NCBI GenBank assembly: GCA_963845095.1
Contig: CAWJQM010000016.1
Span: forward strand, 187,183-251,182
Direction of reading: 5' to 3'
Length of the DNA: 64,000 nucleotides
Origin: an uncultured delta proteobacterium
GTDB taxonomy: Bacteria; Desulfobacterota; Syntrophia; Syntrophales; Smithellaceae
Below, piece by piece: positions 634 to 51,017 of the stretch. Position 1 is the first letter of the stretch; each line of letters begins with the position of its first letter. The notes under the pieces are model-generated. The model was not told the DNA's origin, searched no databases, and was given only the letters and a program-made list of their open reading frames with translations. The position numbers were made by a program, and so were the translations under genes.

Positions 634-3619
634 ATGATGTCTGATCAATCGAAATGTCCCCGGCCGACTCTGGAAGCCGGCGATGTGCTGCATGGATTTA
701 AAGTCTTACGGGTAGAAACATTGCCGGGGGTAAGAATTACGGCTTATGAAATCGAACATAAAAAAACCGGCGCCAAAGTTTTACATCTGCACGGCGATGA
801 CAGGGAAAATTTGTATGCGATCGGCTTTCGCACTCCGCCTGCTGATTCTACGGGGCTGCCCCATATTTTAGAGCACTCCGTGCTGGCGGGCTCCGAAAAA
901 TATCCGCTCAAAGATGTTTTTAAAGAATTGATGCGCTCCACGCTGCAGACATTTATCAACGCCTTTACCTATCCGGACAAAACAGTTTATCCCGTGGCCA
1001 GCCAGATCAAAGGAGATTTTTTCAATCTTGCCCGCGTTTATACCGATCTGGTGCTGCATCCGCGTCTGCTGAAAGAGACCTTCTTGCAGGAAGGCCATCA
1101 TCTGGAATTTGCCGTACCGGATGATTTGTCAAGCGATCTGATGATCTCCGGCATAGTCTATAACGAAATGAAAGGGGCATACTCTTCGCCGGATTCACTC
1201 ATGTATAAGTCGATACAGGAGGGCTTATATCCCGAGAGCGTTTATTCTTTTGATTCCGGCGGTGATCCCGATGTAATTCCGACCCTGACTTATGAACAGT
1301 TCCGCCAATTCCATCGAACTTATTATTCTCCTTCCAATGCCCGTTTTTTTATTTACGGAGATATCCCGACGGCCGAGCATCTGGCTTTTCTGGAAGAAAT
1401 GCTGGCGGGATTTGAACGCGTAAAAGTCAAGTCGGCGATCAAGAGCCAGAAACGCCTGACTAAACCGCGCATTGTCCGCAGCACTTATCCGATAGATAAA
1501 AATGAATCTCTGGCCGGGAAAGCTTCGGTGAATCTGGCCTGGATGATGTCGGAAAATACCGATTACGAAAATTCACTTATCCTGGAAATTATTTCGGGGC
1601 TGCTTACGGGCAGTTCGGCCAGTCCCCTGCGCAAAGCCCTGATTGATTCGAACCTGGGCGAAGATTTGACCCCGGTCAGTGGAATTGAGGGCGATTTAAA
1701 GCAGTTGCTGTTTGCCGTCGGACTGAGGAATACGGACAGCGCCGATGCTCCGGCTATTGAAAAACTGATTTTGACAACCCTGGAGAATATAGTATCTACC
1801 GGATATGACAATGACCTGATCGAAGGAATTCTGCATCAGATTGAATTTCACGGCAAAGAAATTGTCCGGGGATCATATCCTTACGGAATTGCCTTGATGG
1901 GCAATGTGTTTCAATCCTGGCTTTACGATGGCGATCCATTGATCGGTCTGGATTTTCCCCTGATTATCGAGAAAATACGCACGCTCTGGGCAGCCGACCC
2001 GCAATTATTTCAGAAAATGACCAGGCACTGGTTCCTGGATAATAAGCATCGAATTCTGGCGATAATGGAGCCCGATCCGGATTTTGGTGAAAAGAAGGAA
2101 AAAGAGTATCGGGAAAAGATGGCCCGGCTCAAAGCATCGTTTGAATGATGCCCAACTTGCAGAAATTAATGCGCAGGCGAAGGAATTGAAAAAATTCCAG
2201 TCCGAACCCGATTCCCCGGAAGCTGCGGCCACTATCCCCCAATTACAGATCTCCGATATTCCCCGGGCGGTGGCAATAATTCCGGCACAAAATGCCGTCA
2301 TGGGCGGCGTTCCGGCACTCGAGCATGATATTTTTACCAACGGGATTGCTTATCTCGATTTAGTCTTTGATATTTCCCATATTCCGGAAGAGCTGCAGCT
2401 TTATTTGCCGCTTTTGGGCAAGATCATTTCCGGTATGGGAGCCGCCGGATTTTCCTACGATGAAATGGCCAAACGCATAGCTCTGAAAATGGGAGGATTC
2501 GGCTATGATCCCGGCGCGGGATTTTCCGCCGATGCCGGCAGCTGCTGGCAAAAGATGATTTTTTCCGGATCCGCCCTTTATCGCAATCTGCCGGAGGCGC
2601 TGGATGTTATCAGCGATATTCTCTGTGCCGGTGATCTGAGCAACGAAGAGAGAATGTCTGATTTGATCGCCGAGCGGAAAAACAATCTGCAATCGGCAAT
2701 TGTCCCTTCCGGACATATTTTCGCCCGCCGGGCGGCAGGAGCGGCGCTCACACTGCCGGCGTATCGTGACGAACAATGGAACGGGCGCACACAATTGCGC
2801 TTTGTCCAGGCTGTCGCGCGTAACTTTTCTGCGGCGAAAGCGGATCTGGCCGCAAAGCTGGCAGCGCTAAAAGCAATGATTTTCAGCGCAGATAACCTGA
2901 TTATTAATGTGACTGCCGAAACCGCTGGTTTGCAGCTGGTTGCGGATAATATTGCCCGGCTGCTGAACAGACTGCCGGCAAAGGCAGATAAACAAAAGCA
3001 GGCGGTGCCGCCGCTGCCTGCGGTTTGGGCGGGAATTGCCGTACCGTCGCAAGTTTCATATGTCGCCCGGGTGTTGACGGCGCCGGCATATATCGATCCC
3101 GCCACGGCCCTGCTGATGATTGCGGCCAGGGAATTATCCAACAGCTATCTGTATAAGCATATCCGGGTGCAGGGCGGGGCTTACGGGGGTATGTCCTCCT
3201 GTGATGCATCGCTGGGCCTCTTCTCTTTTCTTTCCTATCGCGATCCTCACCTTGCAGAAACTCTGCAGGTATTCCGGGATGCCGAAGACTTCTTCGCGCA
3301 AAATGAAATTTCTGCCGACGACATGAAAAAGGCCATCATCAGCACGATCGGGATGCTGGATAAGCCTATGGATCCGGGAAGCCGCGGCCATGCGTCCTTG
3401 ATGCGCGACATTGCCGGCGTTACCGATGAGATGCGCCAGAAATTCCGCGAAGAAATATTATCGGCCACGCCGCAAAAGCTGAAGAAAGCATTGGGCGAAT
3501 ATTTCCCGCGCGCATCAAAATCAGCGGCGGTGGCGGTTTATTCGGCACAGGAAAAGATCGATGAAGCCAATAGAAGCCTGAAAGAAAAACTGGTTCTGGA
3601 GCATATTTCTGAAGATTAG
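634..3619 (+). CDS. M16C-family zinc metallopeptidase (PreP/presequence-protease-like insulinase); frame broken once
   Basis: Inverted zinc motif HILEHS (HxxEH). ORFs 634..2148 and 2084..3619 are the N and C halves of one ~990-aa PreP-like protein. They join at ...MARLKAS|NDAQLAEINAQAKELKKFQ near the T-run at 2140-2142. Span length is 3n+1. Confidence 0.85.
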
Positions 3620-6250: not shown

Positions 6251-6571
6251 AGCTATCGATTAAACCACTTTTTTAAAAGTAATCCGTCTTTGAGTCGAGG
6301 TAGGGTAGAAATACTGTGCACCCATGTTTAGTGCAACGTCTTCAATCGTTTCCGCCAGTTCCAGCTTCATGGTAAAAGGTCGCCAGACCATGCATCACGT
6401 TTCCGAAAGCCTCCCCAGCAAGGCTCATCAATATCATGATTGCCGAAAAAACAACATCAATGATTAAGTATTCAAGTCAAGCATTTTGCTGAGGTAAGCA
6501 ATGTGTGGATAACAGGAATCTGTGCTTATTTTGAAAGACGGACTCATCCATCTTAAAACGCACTTTTCAAG

Positions 6572-6700
6572 TCGGGAATGATAGAAATGCGCATTGGCAA
6601 AACTCACCGGCAAAATTCGATAGTCCACTTAGCGTGCGACTAAATTGCAAATGCACTGGATTCCCGATAACGTAAAGGTCACGCGTCAGGCCGGGAATGA
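6572..6700. repeat. three CGGGAAT-core motifs in alternating orientation downstream of alaS
   Basis: tcgggaatga at 6572-6581, tggattcccga at 6657-6667 (inverted), ccgggaatga at 6691-6700. Units 2 and 3 can pair as a 7-bp stem on the alaS transcript. Confidence 0.4.
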
Positions 6701-6724
6701 CAATATGGAGACTCCAGATTAAAA

Positions 6725-9369
6725 CTACTTTGTCAGCAACTTTTCCAAGGCCGGAAAAATCTTGCCCAGATTTTCCGGCTGGGTGCCGCCGGCCTGGGCC
6801 ATGTCGGGACGGCCTCCGCCGCTGCCGCCGACAAGCGGGGCGAGTTCCTTGATGATGTTGCCGGCGTGAATACTTTCCGGCCAGGTCTTTGGTAACCATG
6901 CAAAGCAGAAATGCTTTTTCCCCGGCTTTGCCGCCTAGAAAGATTATCCCCGATTCCAGCTTATCCCGCAGCTTGTCGCCGAAATCGCGCAGTGTCTTGG
7001 CATCACTGATATTTACTTCCGTGGCCAGCACTTTCACGCCGCCGATTATCTTTAACCTGACTTAATAAATCTCCGGAGTCTTTGGCGGCCAGTTTCCCTT
7101 TGAGCGCCTCGATTTCCTTTTCCAGATCTTTGCTGTGTTTGAGCAGTTTTTCGGCGCGGTCGGTCAGTTCCGAGGGGCTTGTCTTAAACAACAAGGCGGC
7201 CTTTTTCAGTTCTTCCTCAGCCTTTTGCACATGCAGGAGCGCCTGTCTGCCGGTGACCGCCTCGATGCGGCGCACTCCCGCAGCGATCGCTGATTCATGC
7301 AGCACCTTTAATAAGCCGATATCGCCCGTGCGGGTAACATGTGTGCCGCCGCAGAGCTCCATGCTCATTTCGCCCATTTTGACTATACGCACCGTGGCCC
7401 CGTACTTTTCATCGAATACGGCGGTGGCGCCAGTTTTCAGAGCGTCTTCCAGGGCGCATACCTCGGTTACCACTTCGATATTTTTTCGAATTATGTCGTT
7501 GGCAATATCTTCTATGCGGCTTAGTTCTTCATCGGTGATTTTGGAAAAATGAGAAAAATCAAAGCGCAGCCGTTCGGTATTAACCAGCGACCCGGACTGT
7601 TTGATATGATCCCCCAATACGGCTTTGAGCCCCGCCTGCAAAATATGCGTGCCGGAGTGGTTGGCGGCAATGGCTTTTCTCTTTTCCAGATCAACAATCA
7701 GATGAACTTTATCGCCGGTTTTAATTTTCCCTTTTTGGACAACGCCCTTATGCACGAAGAGTTTTTCCACAGGCTTTTTCGTATCCTGCACTTCGAAGAC
7801 AAAATCCTTGCCTTCCAGATATCCGGTGTCGCCTGCCTGCCCGCCGGATTCGCCATAGAACGGCGTTAATTCCACTATCAGTTCGGCAACCTGCCCTTCA
7901 ATCAGGCTCTCTACCGTTTTCCCCTCCAGAAAGATGGCCGAAATTTTCGATTCTGCTTTTGTCACTCCTTCATAACCGCAGAAGTTCGTGACAATACCGG
8001 AGCTGGATGCTTTCAGGTAGCATTCGTCGATCGATTCCTCCCCGCTGCCTTTCCATGCCCCGCGGGCACGCTCGCGTTGCTGCTCCATTTCGGTTTCAAA
8101 GCCTTCATTATCCAGCGTCAGCCCATCGCGCCTGACAATGTCCGCCGTCAAATCCGTGGGAAAACCGAAAGTATCATAGAGCTTGAATATCAGTGAGCCG
8201 GGGAGAACTGACTTGCCCGCTTTTTTCAGCGCTGCCGTTTCTTCCTGCAGAATGCGCAAACCGGCATCGAGTGTTTCCATGAAACGCTGCTCTTCATTGA
8301 TTATAACCTTGGTAATGAAGGATGACTTTGATTCCAGGTCGGAATAGACATCTTTCATCATAGCAACGACAACTTCAGCGCACTGATAAAGAAAAGGCTT
8401 ATTAATCCCCAGCATTTTGCCATGACGGGCCGCCCGGCGCAAAATGCGCCGCAGAACATAACCGCGGCCTTCATTGCTGGGCAGAATTCCATCACCTATT
8501 AAAAAGGTCACAGCCCGGCTGTGATCGGCGATAACCCGAATGGAGGTATCATCATCGGCTTTATGGCCATAGGTTTTGCCGCTGATTTTTTCGACAAATT
8601 GAATAATGCCGCCGAATAAATCAGTGTCATAGTTGCTTTTTGCGCCCTGAATAACCGCCGTAAGCCTTTCTAAACCCATTCCTGTGTCGATATTCGGTTT
8701 GGGTAGGGGAGTTAATTTCCCTGTTGCGTCGCGGTCAAATTGGGTAAAAACCAGATTCCAGATTTCCAGATAGCGATCGCAGCCGCAATCCAGATCACAT
8801 TCCGGCCTTCCGCAGCCGACGCTGGCGCCCTGATCGTAAATGATTTCGGAGCAGGGGCCGCATGGCCCGGTATCCCCCATCATCCAGAAATTACTTTTTT
8901 CGCCCATCCGGACAATGCGATCGACGGGCACTTTCATTTTTTCATGCCAGATGTTGTAGGCTTCGTCGTCATCCTGATAAACCGTAACCCAGAGTTTATC
9001 TTTCGGCAGCTGCACAACCTCGGTTAAATATTCCCAGCCCCAGGCAATTGCTTCTTCTTTGAAGTAATCGCCAAAGGAAAAATTGCCCAGCATCTCAAAA
9101 AAAGTATGATGGCGGGCGGTGATGCCGACATTTTCCAGATCATTGTGTTTGCCGCCGGCGCGTACGCACTTCTGGGAGGACGCTGCCCTTGTATAGCCCC
9201 TGTTTTCCAAACCTAAGAAGGCGTTTTTGAATTGCACCATCCCCGAATTGGTGAACATTAACGTCGGATCGTCTTTGGGAATGAGAGCTGAGCTGGCAAC
9301 GACAGTATGCCCTTTCCCTGCAAAGTATTGTAAAAAACTTTCCCGAATTTCACTGCCCGTCTTCGCCAT
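6725..9369 (-). CDS. alaS: alanine--tRNA ligase; frame broken twice near the 3' end
   Basis: The 788-aa ORF 7003..9369 is canonical AlaRS. The remaining C-terminus ([16 protein letters not shown]..., then [26 protein letters not shown]...LLTK*) is recovered by frame shifts at ~7044-7054 and ~6861-6868. Stop at 6725-6727. Span length is 3n+2. Confidence 0.9.
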
Positions 9370-14864: not shown

Positions 14865-16260
14865 ATGACCGATCTTATTTTCAGTCTCCAATCCTGGCCG
14901 CGGGCCATAGCCCATATTGACGGCGACGCCTTTTTTACTTCCTGTGAAGAGGCCATCCATCCGGAGCTTAAGGGAAAGCCGCTGATTACCGGCGGCGAGC
15001 GCGGCATTGTCGCCTGCGCCAGTTATGCCGCCAAAAGGGCTGGGGTCAAGCGCGGCGTCCCGCTGCATGAGGCGCGGCAGATCTGCCCTCAGTTAATCAT
15101 CCTGCCTTCCGATTACGAAACTTACAGCCTGTTTTCACAGAGGATGTTCGGCATCATGCGGCGCTTCACCCCCGACGTCGAAGAGTATTCCATTGACGAA
15201 GCCTTTGCCGATATCACCGGCATGCGCCGGGCCCTGCACGCGTCGTACGAAGAAATCGCCCTCCGGATGAAAAAGGAAATTGAAAGAGAGCTGGGCATTA
15301 CCGTTTCCGTGGGCCTGAGCATTACTAAGGTCCTGGCAAAGGTTGCCTCCAAGCACCGGAAACCGGCCGGCATGACGGTAATTAAAGGGAGGGATATTGC
15401 CGGAATATCTGCAGAATCTGCCGGTGGAAAAAGTCTGGGGCATCGGTCAGGCCACAACCAACTATCTGGCCAAGATGAATATTTCCTCTGCGCTGGAATT
15501 TGCCCGTCTGCCCGAAAAAACAGTGCGAAGTAAATTCACCAAACCCGGCGTGGAAATCTGGCAGGAGCTGCGCGGCAATTCAGTTTACCCGGTATCAGCC
15601 GAAGCTAAAAGCTCCTATGCCTCGATCAGCAAGACAAAAACTTTTGCCCCGGCCACAAACAATGCCGAGTATCTTTTTGCCCAACTGATGCGCAATATGG
15701 AATCGGCCTGCATCAAAGCCAGGCGCTATGGGCTTGCTCCGCAGAAAATCGCCGTGTTCCTGAAGAAAAATAATTTTTCTACGCAAGGCAGCGAAGCAAG
15801 GCTTACGCGCCCCTGTGCCTGCCCGCTGGAATTTTCCGGAATTATCCGCGCTCTCTTTGACGCCTGCTTCCGGCCGGAGGAAATTTACCGCGCCACGGGA
15901 GTTATTCTTCTGGATCTGCAACCGGATGCCAACACTCAATATTCTCTTTTTGATGATCCGCCGCAGGCGGAAAAAATAAAGGAACTATACGGTGCCGCCG
16001 ATGAACTGGGGAAAAAATTCGGCAAGCACACTTTGTATCTGGGCAGTTCCCATCCGATTGAGAAACTGGGCAAAGGACGCCGGGGGACTTCCACTGTGCG
16101 CGAACAAACGCGCCTGTTGGGCGAAACGCCGCCGCCGGCATCTGGGCTTGCCGCTGCTTCACATCAAGACGGAAAACTGACAATAATTTGCTGCCGAAAA
16201 ACGAGAGAGCCGGAACAAAGATCGCAAAACGAAAATTATCGGCGCGCCTGCTCTTCATAA
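14865..16260 (+). CDS. dinB: Y-family DNA polymerase (DinB/Pol IV-like); frame broken at ~15390-15399 and probably again at ~16121-16135
   Basis: N-terminus ..IAHIDGDAFFTSCE.., ..YSIDEAFADITG.., SVGLS. The second ORF carries LPVEKVWGIGQ (HhH). A third frame ends ..RRRRHLGLPLLHIKTEN* at 16180, which looks more protein-like than the as-assembled tail ending at 16260. Confidence 0.8.
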
Positions 16261-17379: not shown

Positions 17380-17411
17380 GCATTATTCCGGGGACGCCAA
17401 AGCGACAAAGT

Positions 17412-17441
17412 GAAAAAGGGGGAGCAGTTTCCTGCTCCCCC
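17412..17441 (-). terminator. rho-independent terminator of the fadB-like gene
   Basis: 10-bp GC-rich stem gggggagcag/ctgctccccc (17418-17427 / 17432-17441) with a 4-nt loop. On the minus strand it is followed by TTTTTC. Confidence 0.75.
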
Positions 17442-17484
17442 TTCACGGAATAGAAGTTCAGGCCGGCAGCGTTGCCGGACCCTT

Positions 17485-19503
17485 CTACTTGTAGAACTTT
17501 TTCCCGAACAGCTTCTCGCTCAATCCGGTCAGGTCGCCCCACTTCATGGGACCGCCCTTATCCGCCGGATATCCGGTGCCCCAAATCATCCCGACATCAA
17601 TCATGGCGGGCGAACTGACAATTTTCCGGTCCAGGAGATCCTTGCCGACTTTCAGCATGGATTCGTTAAAACCGTTCTGCATCTCCTCAGCAGATACTTC
17701 TTTCGGCGTTCCCTTGGCAATCAGCGGCAGGACTTCGGGATCGACACTGCCATCTTTGAGGAAGAATCCCTTGCCCGATTTTTTCAGGCCGCATCTCCCT
17801 GCTTCCACGACATTCTTCAGCGTCGGTTCGACAAATCCCATCCCTTTCATGGCCTTGTAAGGAACATCGATGCCGACTTCATCGACCAGGCGAATCGGCC
17901 CCACCGGCATACCGAAGGAGGTCACGGCGCTATCCACCTTCTCGATGGAATTGCCCGCTTCCAGGTATTCCAGGGCCAGTTTGAGGTAAGGGAACAGGAG
18001 GGCGTTGACAACAAAGCCCGGATTGTCGAGGCAGACGATGGGACGTTTCCGAATGAGCCCCGTGAAATTCAAGAGGTTGTCAATGGTTTCCTGGGCAGTC
18101 TGTTCACCGCGGATCACCTCCACGAGCTCCATCATCCAGACGGGGGAGAAGAAATGGATGCCTCCGAACCGCGCCGGATTGGTGACAAAGGGCGCCATCG
18201 AGGTGATGGGGATGGAAGAGGTATTGCTCGCCACAATGCAGTCCTCCCGGACTACCTTGCTCAGTTCTCCGTAGACCTGTTTTTTGACGCCGATTTCTTC
18301 GAAGACGGCCTCGATGACGATATCTACCTCTTTAAACGCATCGATATAGTCCGATGTGGTGGTGAGGCGGGACATCAGATCTTCTACCGGTTCCTTCAGG
18401 CGCTTTTTCTCGGCCATTCCGCCCAGTATTTTCCGAAGAAAGGCCTTGCCCGGTTCCAGAGCTTCGGGAATGTCCTTCACCAGGACAGGAATCTTCGTAT
18501 TGCGCAGGATGTCGATAATGATCCCCCGGCCCATTGTGCCGAAGCCAAGGACCGCAGCCTTGTTGATTGTCTTGGGAGTGAAGCCCTTTGTCATCATGCC
18601 TTTGGGCTTGTCCGTCATCCCCTTGATGAAAAATGTATTGATGCTGCCTTTGGCCTGATTGCTCAGCAGCACCTTGACGAAGTTCTCCTTCTCCAGTTCC
18701 AGGCCCTCTTCCAGAGAGAGCTTGACGCCCCGGTGCATGGCATCGAGGGCATAGATGGGTCCCGGGATCTCGCGCCCCTTCGTAGCCTTGAGTATCCCCT
18801 GTTTGGCCATATCCGCGATGGCATCAACCTGGGAGAAGTCCTGGACGGGACGCTTCAGGTCTGCCTTCCCGGCGCTGATTTCCGCGAGAAAGGCCTTTGC
18901 TGCGATCAGCAGGTCGGCATCGGCGGGAATGAGCCGGTCGATGATCCCCAATTCCAGAGCTTTCGCCGCCGGCAGCATCTTTCCTTTGAGGATCAGCTCA
19001 AAGGCCGGATAACCGATCAGCCGGGGCAGCCGCTGGGTTCCGCCCCCGCCGGGGAAGAGGCCGACGTTGCATTCCGGCAGGCCGATGAGCGTAGTTTTTC
19101 CCTCTTTGGCAATACGCCCCGTACACGCCAACGAGAATTCCAGCCCGCCACCCAGGCAATGCCCGTGTATCGCCGCCACGGAAGGATAAGCCAATTGGCT
19201 CATCCGGGCAAAGCAACCGTGGAAGACATCCAGGATCTTCCGGGCCACATCGGCAGACTCAACCTGTGACATGGTTTTGAGATTGGCCCCGGACTGAAAA
19301 TTGTCCGGCTTTCCGGAAATGAAAATGATCCCCCGGAGCCCCTTTTCCTTCTCCACGTCTCCCATCAGCCGGGCGAAATCTGCAAAGGCCGCATCCGTCC
19401 ATGTGTTCATCGCGTCACCGACCACATCAAAGGTAACGACGCCGACACCATCCTCCACCCGCATGTTGAAAATTTGACTCATGAAGCACCTCCTTGTTTT
19501 CAA
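17485..19503 (-). CDS. bifunctional enoyl-CoA hydratase / 3-hydroxyacyl-CoA dehydrogenase (FadB/FadJ-like)
   Basis: 672 aa. N-terminal crotonase fold (..AAIHGHCLGGGLEF..). C-terminal NAD-binding GFGTMGRGI and the HCDH domain. Confidence 0.9.
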   Translation of the reverse strand: MKTRRCFMSQIFNMRVEDGVGVVTFDVVGDAMNTWTDAAFADFARLMGDVEKEKGLRGIIFISGKPDNFQSGANLKTMSQVESADVARKILDVFHGCFARMSQLAYPSVAAIHGHCLGGGLEFSLACTGRIAKEGKTTLIGLPECNVGLFPGGGGTQRLPRLIGYPAFELILKGKMLPAAKALELGIIDRLIPADADLLIAAKAFLAEISAGKADLKRPVQDFSQVDAIADMAKQGILKATKGREIPGPIYALDAMHRGVKLSLEEGLELEKENFVKVLLSNQAKGSINTFFIKGMTDKPKGMMTKGFTPKTINKAAVLGFGTMGRGIIIDILRNTKIPVLVKDIPEALEPGKAFLRKILGGMAEKKRLKEPVEDLMSRLTTTSDYIDAFKEVDIVIEAVFEEIGVKKQVYGELSKVVREDCIVASNTSSIPITSMAPFVTNPARFGGIHFFSPVWMMELVEVIRGEQTAQETIDNLLNFTGLIRKRPIVCLDNPGFVVNALLFPYLKLALEYLEAGNSIEKVDSAVTSFGMPVGPIRLVDEVGIDVPYKAMKGMGFVEPTLKNVVEAGRCGLKKSGKGFFLKDGSVDPEVLPLIAKGTPKEVSAEEMQNGFNESMLKVGKDLLDRKIVSSPAMIDVGMIWGTGYPADKGGPMKWGDLTGLSEKLFGKKFYK

Positions 19504-27232: not shown

Positions 27233-28587
27233 TTAATCAATGATTCGGGCAAAAAGGTCGTAATCATCAGCGTCAATGATTTTGCATTGGACGATGGCGC
27301 CGGTTTTGGCCTGTCTGCCTTGAACGTAGGTGATGCCGTCAATCTCGGGGGCCTGCCGGCGGCAGCGGCCGGTATAGACATAATCGCTGCGATCGCTTTT
27401 CCCTTCAATTAAAACTTCGCACGTGGTGCCGATTAAGCTTTGATTTATTTTATTCGATATTGCTGCCTGTTCATACATAATAATATCGCGGCGGCGTTCT
27501 TTTTCCGCCTCCGAAATTCTTGCAGCAAGCAGAGCAGCCTTTGTCCCTTCTTCCCGCGAATAGGGGAAAACGCCCAGGTGATCGAACCTTGTCTCGATGA
27601 TGAAATCGAGAAGCCTGTCAAATCTTTTTTGTGTCTCCCCGGGAAAACCGACAATAATTGACGTGCGTAAAGCAACATCGGGAATAATTTCTCTTGCTTG
27701 AGCAATGATTTTTTTAATGCCGGTGCCGGTGACGTTGCGGTTCATTGCCTTTAGAATATGCTCGTCGATGTGCTGGACAGGCAAATCAATATAGCGGCAG
27801 ATTTTCTTACTGCCGGCCAGAGATTTCATCATTTCCGGAGTAATGTGAGCCGGATGGGCATAGAGAAGCCGGATCCAGTCAATTCCCTTTATCCTGGTCA
27901 TCCCGGTTAACAGATCAGGCAGTTGAGGGCGGCTCGGTAAATCCTTGCCGTAAGCTGTTGTGTCCTGTCCGGTGATAATGATTTCCCGAATGCCTCTGGC
28001 TGCCAGCATTGACGCTTCCCGCAGGATGTCTTCCGGCTTCCGGCTGCGGGCTTTGCCCCGGATGTCGGGAATGACACAGTAAGAGCAGCGATTGGAACAG
28101 CCGTCGGAAATCTTTAGATAAGCGCTCACAGAGGTATTGGACAGAATCCGTGCATGCCGCGAAGTCATTAAAAAATCAGGTTTGGTGATAATGGCGGCAC
28201 GCTTTGCATTCGCGGTGCGTAAGCGAGCTTACATGGGCTCGTTATATTGCCTACTTCTCCCGTGCCGACATATAAATCAACCTCGGGTATCTCTGCGAGA
28301 AGCTGCTGGCCATAGCGCTGCGCCAGGCATCCCGCGACGACAAGACGAAATTGACGGCTGCCTTCTTTTTTTTCGCGGGCGAGCAGCAATATCTCTTCGA
28401 GAGCTTCTTCCTTGGCCGGATTAATAAAAGCGCACGTATTGACAATGACGATATCAGCCAGTTCGCGGCGGGGAACGATTTGCAGGCCGGATTTACTGAG
28501 CAGCCCGCCCATTACTTCCGAATCAATCAAATTCTTCGGGCAGCCCAGGCTGATGATATGAATTGTTTTTGGCTTGGTCACCTTCAC
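27233..28587 (-). CDS. rimO: ribosomal protein S12 methylthiotransferase; frame broken once
   Basis: N-terminal UPF0004 domain (ISLGCPKNLIDSE). Radical-SAM CSNRCSYC. C-terminal TRAM domain. The halves join between GTGEVGNI and ARLRTANAKRAAIITKPDFL (~28230-28250). Confidence 0.85.
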
Positions 28588-31823: not shown

Positions 31824-32814
31824 ATGCAAAGTGTTTTAAAAAGAAAAAGAGCTTTGGAAATAATCGATAATTTCCAAAGGGCGGGAGTATTGGTGGTCGG
31901 AGATATAATGGTTGACCATTTTATCTGGGGCAAGGTATCCCGCATTTCTCCGGAAGCGCCTGTTCCGGTTGTGGATGTGCAAAAAGACAGTATTTTGCTC
32001 GGCGGCTGCGCTAATGTGCTCAACAGCATCTACGCTATGGGCGGCAAAGGTTATGTGGCCGGAGTTATTGGCGCCGACAATATCGGAAAACGGCTGCTTG
32101 CGGAATTGCAGCAGCGGAAAATTGAAACCGACGGTATAGTCGTCGAAAAAGGGCGGCCGACTACTTTAAAAACAAGAATCGTTGCCCATGGCCAGCAGAT
32201 GGTGCGTTTTGATAAAGAAAGCAGAAACCCGATTCCCCCGGCCAGCACCAGGAAAATACTGGAGATATGTAAAATCACTGCAAAAGAAAATTGGCGCGGT
32301 TGTTGTTTCCGATTACAGTAAGGGTGTAGTTTCGAGGGAACTGATTGGGGGAATTAGAAAAATTGTGCAGGATGCAAAAATATACATCTGCCTCGATCCG
32401 AAGCAAAGCGACTTTTCCATATATGAAGGAGCTTATGTAATTACTCCCAATCACCACGAGGCGCAGCGTGCTGCAGGGATGGAAATAAACGATCAGAATG
32501 ATCTCCGGCAGGTGGGGGAAACGCTTTTAAAAAAATATAATTTTCAGGCGCTGCTGATTACCCGGGGCGAAGAAGGCATGAGCCTCTTTGAAAGAGGTCA
32601 GAAGATTACCCATACTTACTTTTCGGCTCAGGCCAAAGAGATTTATGATGTTACGGGCGCGGGGGATACGGTTATCGGTGTGCTTGCCCTGAGTCTGGCG
32701 TCCAAAGCCAATCTTCAGGAAGCAACCTGTCTGGCCAACCAGGCCGCCGGCATTGTGGTGGGTAAAGTGGGAACCGCTACGGTTTCGCAGGAAGAGTTAA
32801 TACGAGGTTTATGA
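31824..32814 (+). CDS. rfaE1: D-glycero-beta-D-manno-heptose-7-phosphate kinase (RfaE domain I, PfkB family); frame broken once
   Basis: VLVVGDIMVDHFIWGKVSRISPEAPVPVV hallmark. C-terminal DVTGAGDTV. The halves join at ..RKILE|YVKSLQKKIGAVVVSDY (~32262-32268). Confidence 0.85.
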
Positions 32815-38169: not shown

Positions 38170-38246
38170 TGGTCGGGATGGCGCGATTTGAACGCGCGAC
38201 TCCTGCGTCCCGAACGCAGTGCCCTACCAAGCTGGGCCACATCCCG
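38170..38246 (-). tRNA. tRNA-Pro (anticodon CGG)
   Basis: Manual cloverleaf: acceptor cgggatg/catcccg; anticodon stem ctgcg/cgcag with loop ttCGGga; T-arm gcgcg-ttcaaat-cgcgc. CCA is encoded. Confidence 0.9.
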
Positions 38247-38449
38247 ACGTGGCACGGACGATATAGAATTTATTTCTAAATGTCCACTTTTTTTTATTCG
38301 GGCTCGAATTTATTCTTCAGCAAGGGGATTGTAAGGCATGATTTTCCGGCATGAAGTCACTCGTCTTCTGCGGTATTTATGTACTTAATTGTTTTTTACA
38401 GGGCGGCATGATAATATAACTTATCTTCATAAGCAAAAAGGTGAGAAAA

Positions 38450-38866
38450 GTGATAATTTTTGACTTGAAATGTGAAAACGGGCATAAATTTGACGGCTGG
38501 TTTAAGGATCGACAGGCCTTTATTGATCAAAATTCGCAAAAACTTGTGGCTTGTCCGACTTGCAATAGCTGTCGAGTCAATATAGTGCCATCTTCAGTTA
38601 CGATTGCGGGAAAAGATTTCCGTTCCGCCGGAAAAGGGGAGGAAAAGGGAAATTCCACGCTAAAAACCCTGCAGGCGCTTCATCAGTATATTGATAAAAA
38701 CTTTGAAGATGTCGGCAATTCATTTGCCGAAGTTGCCATAAAGATTCATTACGGGGAAGAGGAAAAACGCAATATCAAAGGAACGACAACTCCACAGGAA
38801 GATGCAAGTTTAAGGGAGGAAGGCGTTCAGTTTTTTAAAATTCCCATCCCTAAAATGGACAGCTAG
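38450..38866 (+). CDS. DUF1178-family zinc-ribbon protein
   Basis: GTG 38450 gives MIIFDLKCENGHKFDGWF..CPTCNS, the typical DUF1178 N-terminus. The ORF track starts 9 nt earlier. Confidence 0.7.
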   Translation: MIIFDLKCENGHKFDGWFKDRQAFIDQNSQKLVACPTCNSCRVNIVPSSVTIAGKDFRSAGKGEEKGNSTLKTLQALHQYIDKNFEDVGNSFAEVAIKIHYGEEEKRNIKGTTTPQEDASLREEGVQFFKIPIPKMDS

Positions 38867-38961: not shown

Positions 38962-41278
38962 ATGCAAAAAAATTATAAGAGCATTATTGATAGTATCGGC
39001 AATACACCACTGGTCGAAATCTGCCGGCTCAATCCCAATAAAAAAGTAAGGATCATGGCGAAAATGGAGAGCGCCAATCCCGGCGGATCAATAAAAGACC
39101 GTACCGCGTTATTCATGATTGAGCGGGCTGAGAAAAGAGGGGAGTTAACACCTGATAAAATTATCCTGGAAGCGACCAGCGGCAACACCGGCATCGGTCT
39201 GGCCATGATTGCCGCGGCTAAAGGTTATAAATTATGCCTGACGTTGACGGAGTCGGCCAGTGAAGAGAGGAAGAAGATATTACGCGCTCTGGGGGCTGAA
39301 CTGCATTATACGCCGGCAAATCAGGGAACTGACGGCGCTATTGAGGTGGCCTATAAAATGCTCCGCGAAAACCCCGGCAAATATTTTGGCACCGATCAAT
39401 TCAATAATGAAGATAATATTGCCGCTCATTATTATGGAACAGCTCAGGAAATCTGGGATCAAACTGAAGGTGCCGTCACCATGGTGGTATCTTGTCTCGG
39501 CACTACCGGCACCGCCATGGGAATTTCCCGCAGGCTCAAAGAATTAAATCCGCAAATCAAAATTATCGGTGTTGAACCATATTTGAAGCACAAGATCCAG
39601 GGTCTGAAGAATATGCGGGAGTCTTACCGGCCGGGTATATTTGATAAAAAGTGCCTGGACGAAAAGGTGAATATTCAGGATGAGGATGCTTTTGTCATGG
39701 CCCGCAGACTGGCCCGTGAAGAGGGGATTATGGCCGGCATGAGTTCCGGCGCCGCGATGTTCATTGCTGCGCAAAAAGCGATGCAGATGCAGGAAGGGAT
39801 GATCGTGGTCATTTTCCCGGACAGCGGAGAGAGGTATTTAAGCACGGAATTATTCGCCGTCAAAGAAGAAGTATCGACTTTCAGTCTATACAATATCCTG
39901 CAACGCCAAAAAACTTTTTTTAAGCCTGTTTCATCCGGAGAAATTCTCATGCATACATGCGGGCCGACGGTCCACGACGCGCCGCATATGGGAAATTACC
40001 GGCGCCTGGTTGTCTCCGATTTGGTTTGCCGCTATTTGACGTATCAGGGTTATGCGGTTAAGCATATAGTGGATCTGGTCGATCTCACAGATAAATCGGT
40101 AAAAGGCGCGGAAAAAGAGGGCATGGAGCTGGCCGGTTACACGGATAAATATTGTAAAATATTTTTGCAGGATGTGGAATCCTTGAATATTTGCCGAAAT
40201 AACATTTACGTTAAAGCTTCGGAAAATGTTGAGGAGATGCTGAAAATAGTCGAAAAATTAGTCGATAAGAACTATGCATATGAGAAGTTGCACTCGGTGT
40301 ATTACGACATATCCAAATTAGCCGATTACGGGGTTCTTTCCAATGTGAATTTGCGAAAAACCCGACAGGCAAAAACCATTGACCTGGATGATTATGAGAA
40401 AGATAGCCCGATGGACTTTGCCCTTTTAAAAAGGGCAAGCTTGGGAGAGTTGAAAAGGGGCATATATCACAAAACAAAATGGGGCAACATCCGGCCGGGT
40501 TGGCATATTGAGTGCGCGGCGATCTCTCATAAATATCTGGGTGCGCTTTATGATATTAATATCAGCGGCGTTGATGAAATTTTCCCGCATTGTGAAAATA
40601 TTTTAGCGATCAACAAAGCTTTGACCGGCAAGAGCGGCGCAAATTACTGGCTCAATGCCGAATTGGTGATGGTTGCAGGCCGAAAGATGTCGCGTTCCTT
40701 AAATAATGCCCTGCCCTTATCGGAATTGTTCCGGAGTGGCTACACGGGAAGAGATGTAAGGTTTTTTTTGTTGGGAGTGCATTATCGCAAGCCGCTTAAT
40801 TATTCTGAAGAAGCAATGGCAACGGCGAGGAATAATGTCCGGAGGCTTGATATGTTTGTTTGCCGGCTTAATGCTGTTGAATAATGACGGCATTGGCTGT
40901 CCGGAGCTGGATCAGTTGATTTACGATCTTAAAAACGGTTTTGCGGCCGCCATGGATGATGATTTGAATATAGCCGTTGCCCTGGCTGTGCTTTTTGATT
41001 TTATCGGTAAAATAAATTTATCGTTAAGCCGGGGAGCAATCAATCAGGATGACAGCCGGAAGATATTGGCGGCGCTGAAAAAGATCAATGAAGTTATCGG
41101 AGTGATGAATTTTGATGTGTTGACCGCATCGCAGGAAATACAGAATTTAATTACGCGCAGAGAAGCTGCGCGACGGGCGCATAATTGGCAGGAGGCCGAT
41201 ATTTTAAGGTCTCAACTGGCCGCGTTAAATGTTGATGTTCTGGATATGCCGCAAGGGACAGTCTGGCATTATCGATAA
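38962..41278 (+). CDS. fusion protein: PLP-dependent cysteine synthase (CysK/CysM-like) + divergent cysteine--tRNA ligase-like module; frame broken once near the 3' third
   Basis: Residues 1-~300 carry GGSIKDR (PLP Lys), TSGNTGIGLA and GTTGTAMG. The sequence then reads directly ..LYNILQRQKTFFKP..CGPTVHDAPHMGNY.., PGWHIECAA, VDEIFPHCENI, RKMSRS. The DALR-2-like and C-terminal part (DDDLNIAVALAVLFDF..) lies in the next frame (break ~40870-40882). Confidence 0.8.
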
Positions 41279-41293
41279 AATGGAGAAACGCAC

Positions 41294-42115
41294 ATGGCAG
41301 CCGTGCGAAAATCGGCAATAGCCGGTTCCTGGTACCCGGGTCATGCTTCTGCCCTGAAGCAGGATATTAAAAATTATTTTGCTTCGGTGCCTGATTTCGA
41401 TTTGCCGGGAGAGATTTCAGGCCTGGTTGCACCCCATGCCGGCTACGTTTATTCCGGACTGGTGGCCGCCTATGCGTACAAGCTTATTTCCGGCAGGAAT
41501 TACGATGCCGTCGTCATCGTTGGCCCCAGTCATCGCGTGGCTTTCTCCGGGGCGTCTATTTATCGCAGAGGCGGGTATGAGACGCCTTTGGGGATTGTTC
41601 CTGTTGCCGAGCATTTAGCTGATCATATTAGTAATTTCAGCGGAATTGTCCATGACCTTCCCGCAGCTCACATCCAGGAACATTCTTTGGAAATTCAGCT
41701 GCCTTTTCTGCAGGTTGCCCTGGGGGATTTTTCCTTTGTACCTCTGGTGATGGGAGATCAGAGAGCCGACACCTGTTATGAACTGGCGGAGGCGATTTAT
41801 CAGGCTATAAAAGGTAAAAAAATACTGATTGTGGGCAGTTCTGATTTATCCCATTTTCATAATTATAACAAGGCCTCGCAGTTGGATGCCGTAGCTCTCC
41901 AGTATTTACAAAGCGGTGATGCAGCCGGGCTTTTAAAAAGCTTGGATAGCGATATTTGCGAGGCTTGCGGCGGCGGACCAATGGCTGTGGCGATGCTGGT
42001 GGCGCAAAAGATGGGCGCTGAAAAGTCAAAATTGCTGAAATATGCTAATTCGGGAGATGTAACCGGAGATAAAAGTTCAGTGGTTGGATATGCGTCGGCA
42101 GTATTTTATGAATAG
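41294..42115 (+). CDS. amrB: AmmeMemoRadiSam system protein B (MEMO1-like)
   Basis: ..IAGSWYPG.., ..VAPHAGYVYSG.., ..EHSLEIQLPFLQ.. 273 aa. Confidence 0.85.
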   Translation: MAAVRKSAIAGSWYPGHASALKQDIKNYFASVPDFDLPGEISGLVAPHAGYVYSGLVAAYAYKLISGRNYDAVVIVGPSHRVAFSGASIYRRGGYETPLGIVPVAEHLADHISNFSGIVHDLPAAHIQEHSLEIQLPFLQVALGDFSFVPLVMGDQRADTCYELAEAIYQAIKGKKILIVGSSDLSHFHNYNKASQLDAVALQYLQSGDAAGLLKSLDSDICEACGGGPMAVAMLVAQKMGAEKSKLLKYANSGDVTGDKSSVVGYASAVFYE

Positions 42116-42127
42116 GAGGATTGCGCA

Positions 42128-42676
42128 ATGGAACTGACCCCCAAAGAAAAAGCGACTCTGCTGGATATCGTTAAAAAAACTATTGCCGGCAAAGTTAATA
42201 ATAAGAATGTACCCAAGATAACGGTTGATTCGGAAACACTGAAAGAAAAAAGAGGTGCCTTTGTTACGTTGAAAAAAAGGGGTCATTTGCGGGGGTGTAT
42301 CGGTTACATCAAAGCAGTCAAGCCGCTTTGGGAAACCGTGCAGGAAATGGCCGTTGCTGCTGCCTTTCACGATCCGCGTTTTCCGGCGCTGCAGGCCGAG
42401 GAACTTAAAGACCTGTCCCTGGAAATATCGGTCTTGAGTCCATTGCAACGTATTAAGAATATTAACGATATTGAGGTAGGGAAGCACGGTTTATATATTG
42501 TTCGGGGATATAATTCCGGTCTGCTGCTGCCGCAAGTGGCAGTTGAGTATGGTTGGGACAGGGAAACATTTCTTCGGGAAACTTGTTATAAGGCCGGTCT
42601 GTCGGCGGAAGACTGGATGAATTCAGAAACGGAAATTTATATTTTTTCAGCGGATTATTTTGGCGATACAGATTAA
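42128..42676 (+). CDS. amrA: AmmeMemoRadiSam system protein A (AMMECR1 domain)
   Basis: ..RGAFVTLKKRGHLRGCIGY.. AMMECR1 signature. 182 aa. Confidence 0.85.
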   Translation: MELTPKEKATLLDIVKKTIAGKVNNKNVPKITVDSETLKEKRGAFVTLKKRGHLRGCIGYIKAVKPLWETVQEMAVAAAFHDPRFPALQAEELKDLSLEISVLSPLQRIKNINDIEVGKHGLYIVRGYNSGLLLPQVAVEYGWDRETFLRETCYKAGLSAEDWMNSETEIYIFSADYFGDTD

Positions 42677-42846: not shown

Positions 42847-42922
42847 GCTGGCGTAGCTCAATCGGTAGAGCAGCTGATTTGTAATCAGCAGGTTGCGGGT
42901 TCGAGTCCCATCGCCAGCTCCA
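42847..42922 (+). tRNA. tRNA-Thr (anticodon TGT)
   Basis: Acceptor gctggcg/cgccagc. Anticodon stem gctga/tcagc with loop ttTGTaa. T-loop ttcgagt (one C-A mismatch in the T stem). CCA is encoded. Confidence 0.85.
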
Positions 42923-42944
42923 GTTCCGATATATTTAATATGAT

Positions 42945-43029
<85 letters not shown>

Positions 43030-43050
43030 GAATATTTGAAGTGTAAATTA

Positions 43051-43126
43051 GCGGGAGTAGCTCAGTGGCTAGAGCGTCAGCCTTCCAAGCTGAGGGTCGC
43101 GGGTTCGAATCCCGTTTCCCGCTCCA
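43051..43126 (+). tRNA. tRNA-Gly (anticodon TCC)
   Basis: Acceptor gcgggag/ttcccgc. Anticodon loop ctTCCaa. T-loop ttcgaat. CCA is encoded. Confidence 0.9.
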
Positions 43127-43170
43127 AGCTTTTTAGTTTAGTTGTAGGGCGAAAAGCCTAGAGCAACCTC

Positions 43171-43246
43171 GCCCACGTAGCTCAGTCGGTAGAGCACATC
43201 CTTGGTAAGGATGAGGTCACCAGTTCAATCCTGGTCGTGGGCTCCA
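43171..43246 (+). tRNA. tRNA-Thr (anticodon GGT)
   Basis: Acceptor gcccacg/cgtgggc. Anticodon stem catcc/ggatg with loop ttGGTaa. T-arm accag-ttcaatc-ctggt. CCA is encoded. Confidence 0.9.
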
Positions 43247-43370
43247 GTTAGGGGGCATAAGAAATGACCACCCTGCGGGTCTTGTGGCCTTCAGGTTATG
43301 GCAAGACCATTTCGTTATGGCCCCTTATGCCGGTTGCGTTGTTATAGTTATTATTTGATGACGGCTTAAG
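43247..43370 (+). repeat. structured hairpin element, divergent copy D
   Basis: Starts right after the tRNA-Thr CCA. Arms agggggcataagaaatg / catttcgttatggcccct. Shares ccttatgcc, tatttga and the terminal acggcttaag with copies B and C. Confidence 0.65.
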
Positions 43371-43378
43371 GGAGAGTT

Positions 43379-43528
43379 ATGCGGAATAATATTATTTTAG
43401 CTTGTACGGACTGCAAGCAAAGGAATTACACAACAACAAAAAACAAGCGTACTATGCAAAACCGCCTGGAGCTGAAGAAGTATTGTAAGTTTTGCCGGGG
43501 GCACAAGTTGCACAGGGAAACCAAGTAA
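43379..43528 (+). CDS. rpmG: 50S ribosomal protein L33 (49 aa; below the ORF-track cutoff)
   Basis: Manual translation: [52 protein letters not shown] aagggagag. Confidence 0.9.
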
Positions 43529-43546
43529 ATTTGACTCAAAGTAAAC

Positions 43547-43623
43547 AGGCCAGTAGCTCTAATGGATAGAGCGCCGGACTCCAAATCCGGATGCTGGGGG
43601 TTCAAGTCCCTCCTGGCCTGCCA
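43547..43623 (+). tRNA. tRNA-Trp (anticodon CCA)
   Basis: Acceptor aggccag/ctggcct. Anticodon stem ccgga/tccgg with loop ctCCAaa. T-loop ttcaagt. CCA is encoded. Confidence 0.9.

Positions 43624-46899: not shown

Positions 46900-51017
<4,118 letters not shown>

Follow-up and report, generated by a model that had tools for sequence, protein, structure and literature searches.

A CysM-type cysteine synthase fused to a divergent cysteinyl-tRNA synthetase homolog in Smithellaceae and other Desulfobacterota

Cysteine synthesis and the gene for cysteinyl-tRNA synthetase (CysRS) are genetically coupled in Bacillus subtilis, where a cysE-cysS operon lies upstream of rlmB...secE-nusG; more generally, the cysS-rlmB-secE-nusG neighborhood occurs in Firmicutes and the cysS-rlmB pair in Actinobacteria. 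Synthetase relatives with other duties have also been described, such as HisZ, a HisRS paralog that regulates HisG, and MshC (3C8Z), a CysRS-derived enzyme with a changed job that has no anticodon-binding domain. In Mycoplasma penetrans, the methionyl-tRNA synthetase is fused to aminotransferase-like domains, the added domain being N-terminal and serving dimerization, which is an earlier instance of covalent linkage between a class I synthetase and a domain with a pyridoxal phosphate (PLP) enzyme fold (PMC13215547). The Desulfobacterales have a second CysRS-type gene, CysRS*, without an anticodon-binding domain and downstream of selC*/selB* (Mukai et al. 2016, PMC5389517). Here, we analyzed a stretch of 64,000 nucleotides from an uncultured member of the Smithellaceae (Desulfobacterota, Syntrophales), referred to below as the window (contig CAWJQM010000016.1 of assembly GCA_963845095.1, positions 187,183 to 251,182), in which a plus-strand gene at 38962-41278 encodes a CysM-type cysteine synthase followed, in the same polypeptide, by a complete CysRS architecture with an altered active site. 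The M. penetrans protein differs from it in the amino acid, in the PLP fold, and in having unrelated sequences (PMC13215547), and CysRS* comes from the same phylum yet is neither fused nor adjacent to CysM (PMC5389517). Literature searches returned no description of a CysM-CysRS fusion, in agreement with an earlier note made from the letters of this DNA, whose author knew of no characterized example.

The region comprises two plus-strand open reading frames (ORFs), one of 640 amino acids (38962..40884) and another in the +1 frame (40835..41278). Pfam recognized PALP (residues 10-287, E 2e-70) and tRNA-synt_1e (residues 320-623, E 1e-80) in the first, and DALR_2 (E 3e-11) and CysS_C (E 3e-7) in the second, and NCBIfam assigned residues 10-298 to the cysKM subfamily and residues 308-631 together with the second ORF to the cysS model. 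The CysRS half also aligned end to end by HMMER with the solved CysRS 8QHP, 3TQO, and 1LI5/1U0B. From the N terminus, the gene consists of the CysM-type cysteine synthase module (residues 1-298, 38962..39855), a linker of eight residues (AVKEEVST, residues 299-306, 39856..39879) separating the cysKM match, which runs to 298, from the cysS match, which sets in at 307/308, the CysRS-like N terminus with the Rossmann catalytic and CP domains in the first frame (residues 307-638, 39880..40876), and, after one frame break, the DALR_2 helical and C-terminal anticodon-binding domain in the second frame (residues 640-771 once repaired, 40880..41278), which includes a QGTVW signature (41252-41266) and ends at the stop codon 41276-41278. 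It is a single real gene, and the agreement of Pfam, NCBIfam, and HMMER bears out what the earlier note had read from the letters: a cysteine synthase fused to a full CysRS architecture through a linker of about eight residues, with the anticodon-binding domains beyond one frame break and all the quoted motifs (GGSIKDR, TSGNTG, GTTGTAMG, TCGPT, HMGN, KSVK, WHIECAA, and KMSRSLNN) in their places.

The nature of the frame break was examined by alignment to L001, the locus of the closest database protein (P0001, 771 amino acids), which is fully syntenic with the window at 98% DNA identity. At 40876-40879 the window reads GTTG and L001 reads GTG, the sole difference at the break, and the one extra T (40877..40878) creates an apparent stop at 40882-40884. 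Its deletion gave a clean ORF of 771 codons with zero other stops, and P0001 reads ...RLNAVNNDGIG... through the same position. Along the 22 kb shared with L001 there were 17 indel events, those in coding sequences being single-base insertions in the window, which split pfkB (at 32265, within 31824-32814) and rpoB (at 47476 and 50408, within 46900-51017), both intact in L001. The genes for an M16/PreP peptidase (634-3619), dinB (14865-16260), and a miaB-like methylthiotransferase (27233-28587) are also split by frame breaks, and alaS (6567-9369), which is without its C-terminal part, is probably frame-broken too. Since rpoB, pfkB, and other core genes are broken alike, we consider the break an assembly error: very likely it is a one-base insertion in the record, and the living organism would have an intact gene of ca. 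771 codons. The record is indel-rich, and any frame break in it should be regarded with distrust.

The ratios of nonsynonymous to synonymous substitution (dN/dS) against L001 were 0.054 for the CysM part, 0.020 for the catalytic part of CysRS, and 0.055 downstream of the break; against a Smithella genome (L090), CysM and the CysRS catalytic domain each gave 0.03. If the break were biological, the gene would be a pseudogene of recent origin or would undergo programmed +1 frameshifting to give a 640-amino-acid product (CysM plus catalytic domain) beside the full-length one. The break is present in the sequence as given and the extra base is outside any long homopolymer, but all relatives are intact, including those 97-99% identical, and the part downstream of the break is under the selection just mentioned. 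Besides, two such insertions sit in the essential rpoB of the same window, at least four other window genes (pfkB, dinB, the peptidase, and the miaB-like gene) are split likewise, and an exact lookup found the 640-amino-acid product on record in no assembly. Intact relatives, low dN/dS, and the repaired ORF taken together make either form of a biological break very unlikely. Other database entries of 640 amino acids were considered as sharers of the same truncation and rejected, as they are N-terminally truncated gene calls.

The cysteine synthase half is well conserved. The window ORF passed the cysKM model (TIGR01136, 365.4 versus a cut-off of 344.15; P0001, 364 versus 344) and remained below the cysM equivalog model (TIGR01138, 362 versus 394.2). 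It contains GGSIKDR with the PLP lysine (K45, 39094-39096, plus strand), the TSGNTG substrate loop, the GTTGT phosphate loop, and MSSGAA. Among 119 Smithella-type sequences, the CysM motif residues were 98-100% conserved, with K45 and the TSGNTG loop invariant, and the linker was the least conserved part of the protein (mean pairwise identity, 0.60). K45 is invariant in all fusion clades, in which the CysM half is highly conserved throughout and the CysRS half is not. The best solved matches for residues 9-299 were the E. coli/Salmonella CysM structures 2V03, 2BHS, and 2JC3 (255 bits, 45-46% identity), with which the window protein shares all the PLP-binding motifs and from which it differs by a C-terminal extension of 470 residues and by the score under the equivalog cut-off. 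This half would make L-cysteine from sulfide and an activated serine (O-acetyl- or O-phosphoserine). The 64-kb window showed no cysE.

An AlphaFold2 model calculated from a 114-sequence alignment reached a pLDDT of 85 (61 in an earlier run with a shallow alignment), with both halves confident, the linker residues 289-303 below 50, and a pTM of 0.65. Foldseek matched the C-terminal half to chain B of the CysRS-tRNA complex 1U0B over the whole chain (TM 0.84). It matched the N-terminal half to O-acetylserine sulfhydrylases, and among its matches there was no solved chain that spans both halves. With the low confidence of the linker and the pTM, the model lends no support to an interface or a fixed tunnel, and the cautious interpretation is that a flexible tether keeps the two halves close.

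Deviations in the CysRS half were measured against 91 CysRS representatives of the canonical clade. The correspondence with C28, C209, H234, H235, and E238 of E. coli drawn in the earlier note holds in the HMMER alignments to 1LI5/1U0B, and E. coli numbering is used for the equivalent positions below. Several motifs had been singled out there as unusual, of which HMGN (residues 342-345, 39985-39996, plus strand) and KSVK (residues 378-381) are ordinary variation: position 4 of HIGH is Asn in 66 of the 91 canonical proteins, which also vary at the second Lys of KIIK. The replacements H235C, E238I, and K269R are real, and we found two more, N66D and T68V (V373, 40078-40080, plus strand). In the canonical set T68, H235, and E238 are invariant (91/91), and N66 and K269 are conserved in 90 of the 91. 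Three zinc ligands are kept, C28 as C333 of TCGPT (39958-39960), C209 as C518 of WHIECAA (residues 514-520; WHIEC, 40501-40515), and H234, all three read as kept in the earlier note too; the fourth, E238, is Ile in SGVDEIFPHCENI (residues 535-547; FPHCENI, 40582-40602). In the amino acid pocket W205 and H206 are retained next to the replaced N66, T68, and H235. KMSRSLNN (residues 575-582; KMSRS, 40684-40698) carries Arg at K269, HMGN serves as the HIGH-type motif, and for anticodon binding there are DALR_2, CysS_C, and a QGxxW signature that is 97-99% conserved in the 119 Smithella-type sequences. All these motifs lie on the plus strand.

This combination is not a peculiarity of one sequence. 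In the 119 Smithella-type proteins C333, H342, G344, N345, W514, H515, C518, H543, and KMSRS were 100% conserved, V68 98%, and both C544 (position 235) and I547 (position 238) 97%. A sister clade of Syntrophales, only ca. 50% identical, has FPHCEN[VIL] in 100 of 117 sequences, KMSRS in 103 of 117, a C-terminal GxxW, and I or V in place of T68. As the same variant is conserved in both clades, the motif patterns argue for a stable alternative configuration of the active site rather than decay. The full-length protein P0001 passed the curated cysS model (TIGR00435, 370.7 versus 340), the two window fragments alone scoring 299.7 and 63.1. Compared with E. coli CysRS (1LI5/1LI7/1U0B), the window protein keeps the domain order and length, C28, C209, H234, W205, H206, a HIGH-type motif, and the anticodon domain, and differs in the fusion to CysM, the five replacements above, an "RR" after HIGH, an insertion in the CP region, and its position in a separate clade.

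As for the phyletic spread of the architecture, a question raised in the earlier note, the fusion was found widely across the Desulfobacterota and not only in the window. More than 120 clusters at 90% identity (771-783 amino acids, at least 77% identical), all annotated as cysteine--tRNA ligase, come from Smithella, Smithellaceae, and related metagenome-assembled genomes (MAGs), and a search of 50%-identity representatives added at least eight clusters of full-length fusions, in which the identity of the CysRS half falls as low as 29%. A profile search retained 7996 proteins at E ≤ 1e-30 among 8000 candidates scored; the best 120 of them were full-length fusions of 757-792 amino acids, the named ones from Desulfobacterales and relatives. 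In a sample of GTDB genomes, fusions appeared in Desulfobacterales, Desulfobulbales, Desulfovibrionales, and others among the matches listed. The fusion is therefore common among syntrophs and sulfate reducers, with hundreds of clusters in Smithellaceae/Syntrophales and thousands of proteins in Desulfobacterota. Named examples include Desulfovibrio ferrophilus WP_126381224.1 (P0125) and a protein from a Nanoarchaeota MAG (P0124). A different case is P0132 (761 amino acids), with PALP, the first ca. 60 CysRS residues, and a weak Radical_SAM match, which reflects a chimeric or misassembled contig unless it is a fusion of another kind.

In a neighbor-joining tree of 124 CysRS modules, a distance-based method in which long-branch effects are possible, all the Desulfobacterota fusions, including the window type, grouped apart from canonical CysRS. 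The Nanoarchaeota fusion and an adjacent cysM/cysS pair from a Patescibacteria MAG, both with a fully canonical CysRS, fell inside the canonical group and are independent cysM-cysS couplings. All members of the separate group have "RR" after HIGH (HxGxxRR), and its three standalone members (P0139, P0147, and P0140) each overlap a CysM-type PALP gene or follow one at a distance of 2-4 nt; unfused CysM + CysRS pairs were located at L082 251-2588, L083 7108-9455, L086 7193-9521, and L046 9995-12282. By tree and motif, then, the CysRS halves make up a clade of their own, in every case either joined to CysM in one protein or encoded directly behind a CysM gene, and the window protein belongs to it on all counts (fused to CysM, RR after HIGH, and grouping apart from canonical CysRS).

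Such a separate clade, and the changes at canonical-invariant positions in the window protein, are what one would expect of an auxiliary paralog existing beside a separate canonical cysS, whose CysRS-like half would sense cysteine or tRNA-Cys to regulate CysM, or would activate an altered CysM product (a cysteine derivative or selenocysteine). We regard this as a serious contender, if not a probable one. It is favored by the fact that most other members of the clade cannot be synthetases. In 119 top-scoring fusions (P0301-P0419; Desulfobacterales, Desulfobacteraceae, or Desulfococcaceae where named), the zinc and cysteine pocket is kept (C28, T68, W205, C209, and FPHHENE), with Glu at position 4 of HIGH (HxGE), KMSKS lost (KVDEQ and similar; e.g., P0314 and P0407, the latter being MDM8525526.1), and a truncated anticodon motif. 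In the Desulfovibrionales (the D. ferrophilus protein and L010, L011, and L012), C28, C209, HIGH, and KMSKS are all gone, and the CysRS-like half is still ca. 470 residues long, apparently a pseudo-synthetase domain retained on an intact CysM. Judging from these motifs, neither the Desulfobacterales nor the Desulfovibrionales halves can be working synthetases, and the ligase name on KMSKS-less Desulfobacterales fusions is probably a systematic misannotation (one such member, named cysteine--tRNA ligase, scored 376.6 versus 340 with TIGR00435). Extra CysRS paralogs are known in Desulfobacterota (CysRS*, PMC5389517). Finally, a Smithellaceae MAG (JAUYFM010000020.1; L073 8611-13605) carries a cluster of Cys_Met_Meta_PP, a standalone CysK (308 amino acids), a PALP with CBS domain (459 amino acids), and a second Cys_Met_Meta_PP, so that the fusion is not necessarily required for making cysteine; by gene content, at least one Smithellaceae genome seems to have cysteine synthase capacity apart from it.

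Against an auxiliary role, a deep Syntrophales clade shows strict conservation of the ATP motifs, three zinc ligands, and the anticodon signature, at a dN/dS of ca. 0.03, and a pure sensor would not need these motifs, which other lineages did lose. The fusion also occupies a vertically inherited, housekeeping-type place on the chromosome. Nor did a second cysS turn up: tblastn searches with E. coli CysRS and a canonical representative, covering the window and more than 80 loci with flanks of ca. 20 kb, returned only fusions. By analogy, the decayed members of the clade may be likened to HisZ, in that a synthetase-derived domain would have kept its amino acid site, lost aminoacylation, and become attached to the matching biosynthetic enzyme; the window protein is less HisZ-like than these relatives, as it has kept the ATP and tRNA signatures. 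Identity with CysRS* was considered and rejected, given that the anticodon domain is present and that the neighbors are DUF1178 and amrB/tRNAs, and no tRNA-Sec-like gene was seen near the fusion.

The earlier note had also pointed to MshC as an analogy, and a ligase of that kind, with the CysRS-like half adenylating cysteine and joining it to a small acceptor molecule in the making of a low-molecular-weight thiol, would fit a divergent CysRS homolog with an altered pocket and a physical tie to cysteine supply, sharing with MshC the catalytic-domain fold and a partial match to its model. That match is far from the cut-off, however (TIGR03447, 175.5 versus 485.1), in a family whose full-length member passes TIGR00435. 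The match to solved MshC is also weaker than those to CysRS (118 versus 259-310 bits), the anticodon-binding domain missing from MshC is kept here, and there are no glycosyltransferase or deacetylase neighbors of a thiol pathway at the loci examined. The analogy does not stand up to these comparisons, and we give a thiol ligase hardly any credence.

What is established here is that the gene is intact and its domains complete, together with the motif states, the purifying selection, and the family distribution. On this basis we lean, by a small measure, to an active bifunctional CysM-CysRS, whose C-terminal half would still activate cysteine with ATP and transfer it to tRNA-Cys through a rewired pocket. 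The Syntrophales proteins have retained the ATP signatures HxGN and KMSRS, three zinc ligands, Trp205/His206, and the anticodon-domain signature, next to a pocket that is rewired with respect to all canonical CysRS examined (N66D, T68V/I, H235C, E238I/V/L, and K269R) and stably conserved. Because the relatives in Desulfobacterales and Desulfovibrionales have lost KMSKS, HIGH, or the zinc cysteines, the strict retention in Syntrophales points to selection for catalysis. Cysteine made in cis would be used beside its source, with the benefit presumably coming from proximity on a flexible tether and not from a fixed tunnel. That the fusion is in addition the only CysRS of the genome seems to us slightly short of an even call.

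Several observations weigh against an active synthetase. Five near- or fully invariant canonical positions are replaced, one of them a zinc ligand (E238), and T68, which in the E. coli enzyme is reported to bind the amino group of the substrate, is another; T68V together with E238V is also found in a relative (L002) whose HIGH motif is gone. Passing TIGR00435 is no proof of activity, as the score of the KMSKS-less relative illustrates. Outside Syntrophales the clade has mostly lost the aminoacylation motifs, so a further CysRS must be present in those genomes, as it could be in the organism of the window. The geometry between domains in the model is not confident (pTM 0.65), so that channelling is unsupported by it.

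Syntrophales loci share the gene order pfkB-DUF4416-yicC-gmk-rpoZ-pyrF-rlmB-pilC-(tRNA-Pro)-DUF1178-[fusion]-(amrB-amrA)-tRNAs-secE-nusG-rplKAJL-rpoBC, a synteny that reflects stable vertical inheritance of the fusion in a housekeeping block across the order. As in the B. subtilis cysE-cysS case, cysteine synthesis and cysS would be coupled near rlmB and secE-nusG-rplK-rpoB, although there it is an operon rather than a fusion, with a serine acetyltransferase instead of a sulfhydrylase and in a different gene order. The constant upstream neighbor in Syntrophales-type loci, ca. 90-290 nt from the fusion, is a gene for a DUF1178 zinc ribbon (38441..38866, plus strand; Pfam E 1e-39), which occupies the same slot in L001 (9480-9905), L087 (6495-6911), L089 (6290-6706), and L090 (9511-9906) and was not found beside the fusion in other orders. 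Neighbors there are tmk in Desulfobacterales and permease, type II secretion (T2SS), or DciA genes elsewhere.

Downstream, amrB (Memo; 41294-42115) and amrA (AMMECR1; 42128-42676), both on the plus strand and matching the NCBIfam pair TIGR04336 and TIGR04335, are without an adjacent radical-SAM partner. The gap to amrB is 15 nt, not 16 as the earlier note had counted. Its suggestion of cotranscription is probably right for the window, where no terminator-like site was seen in this stretch (the promoter/terminator scan was uninformative overall), though the two genes are not part of the unit. They follow the fusion in some Syntrophales loci only, and are absent from this slot in the Smithella genome L090 (12316-13205, where the tRNA cluster and secE-nusG come directly) and in all non-Syntrophales fusion loci, and hence the proposed link with AmmeMemoRadiSam is local and incidental. 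Rfam detected no T-box or riboswitch upstream of the fusion, only tRNAs. Between amrA and secE there is a cluster of tRNA genes (42847-43623; Thr-UGU, Tyr, Gly-UCC, and Thr-GGU, then Trp), and tRNA-Pro(CGG) is at 38170-38246 on the minus strand; the window has no tRNA-Cys. Elsewhere in the window, an ORF of 619 amino acids without Pfam match (17410-19269, plus strand) is antisense to a gene for a FadB-type enoyl-CoA hydratase/3-hydroxyacyl-CoA dehydrogenase (17485-19503, minus strand) and is most likely a shadow ORF.

A wider scenario, which we put forward as tentative and rather unlikely in its entirety, is that the CysM-coupled clade documents the passage from synthetase to non-synthetase of a domain joined all along to the enzyme that makes its own amino acid: in Syntrophales it would be the sole CysRS, with a rewired metal and amino acid pocket in which the universal His235/Glu238 pair has given way to Cys235 and a hydrophobic residue at 238, and from which Thr68 is missing; in Desulfobacterales, where just the zinc and cysteine pocket is kept, a HisZ-like cysteine sensor for CysM; and in Desulfovibrionales a scaffold. 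With a rewired sole CysRS, the C28/C209/H234/E238 plus T68 site could no longer be assumed to be obligatory for the selection of cysteine. Should the Syntrophales protein charge tRNA-Cys, the zinc site for editing-free selection of cysteine would prove open to reconstruction through the exchange of four or five "invariant" residues, and the fusion would be a natural example of a covalent tie between the synthesis of an amino acid and the charging of its tRNA. Otherwise, thousands of Desulfobacterota entries named cysteine--tRNA ligase would be misnamed, many of them KMSKS-less yet above a curated cut-off, and the CysRS-like half would represent a new synthetase-derived regulatory or scaffold domain for cysteine synthase, with a bearing on the control of cysteine in sulfide-rich anaerobes.

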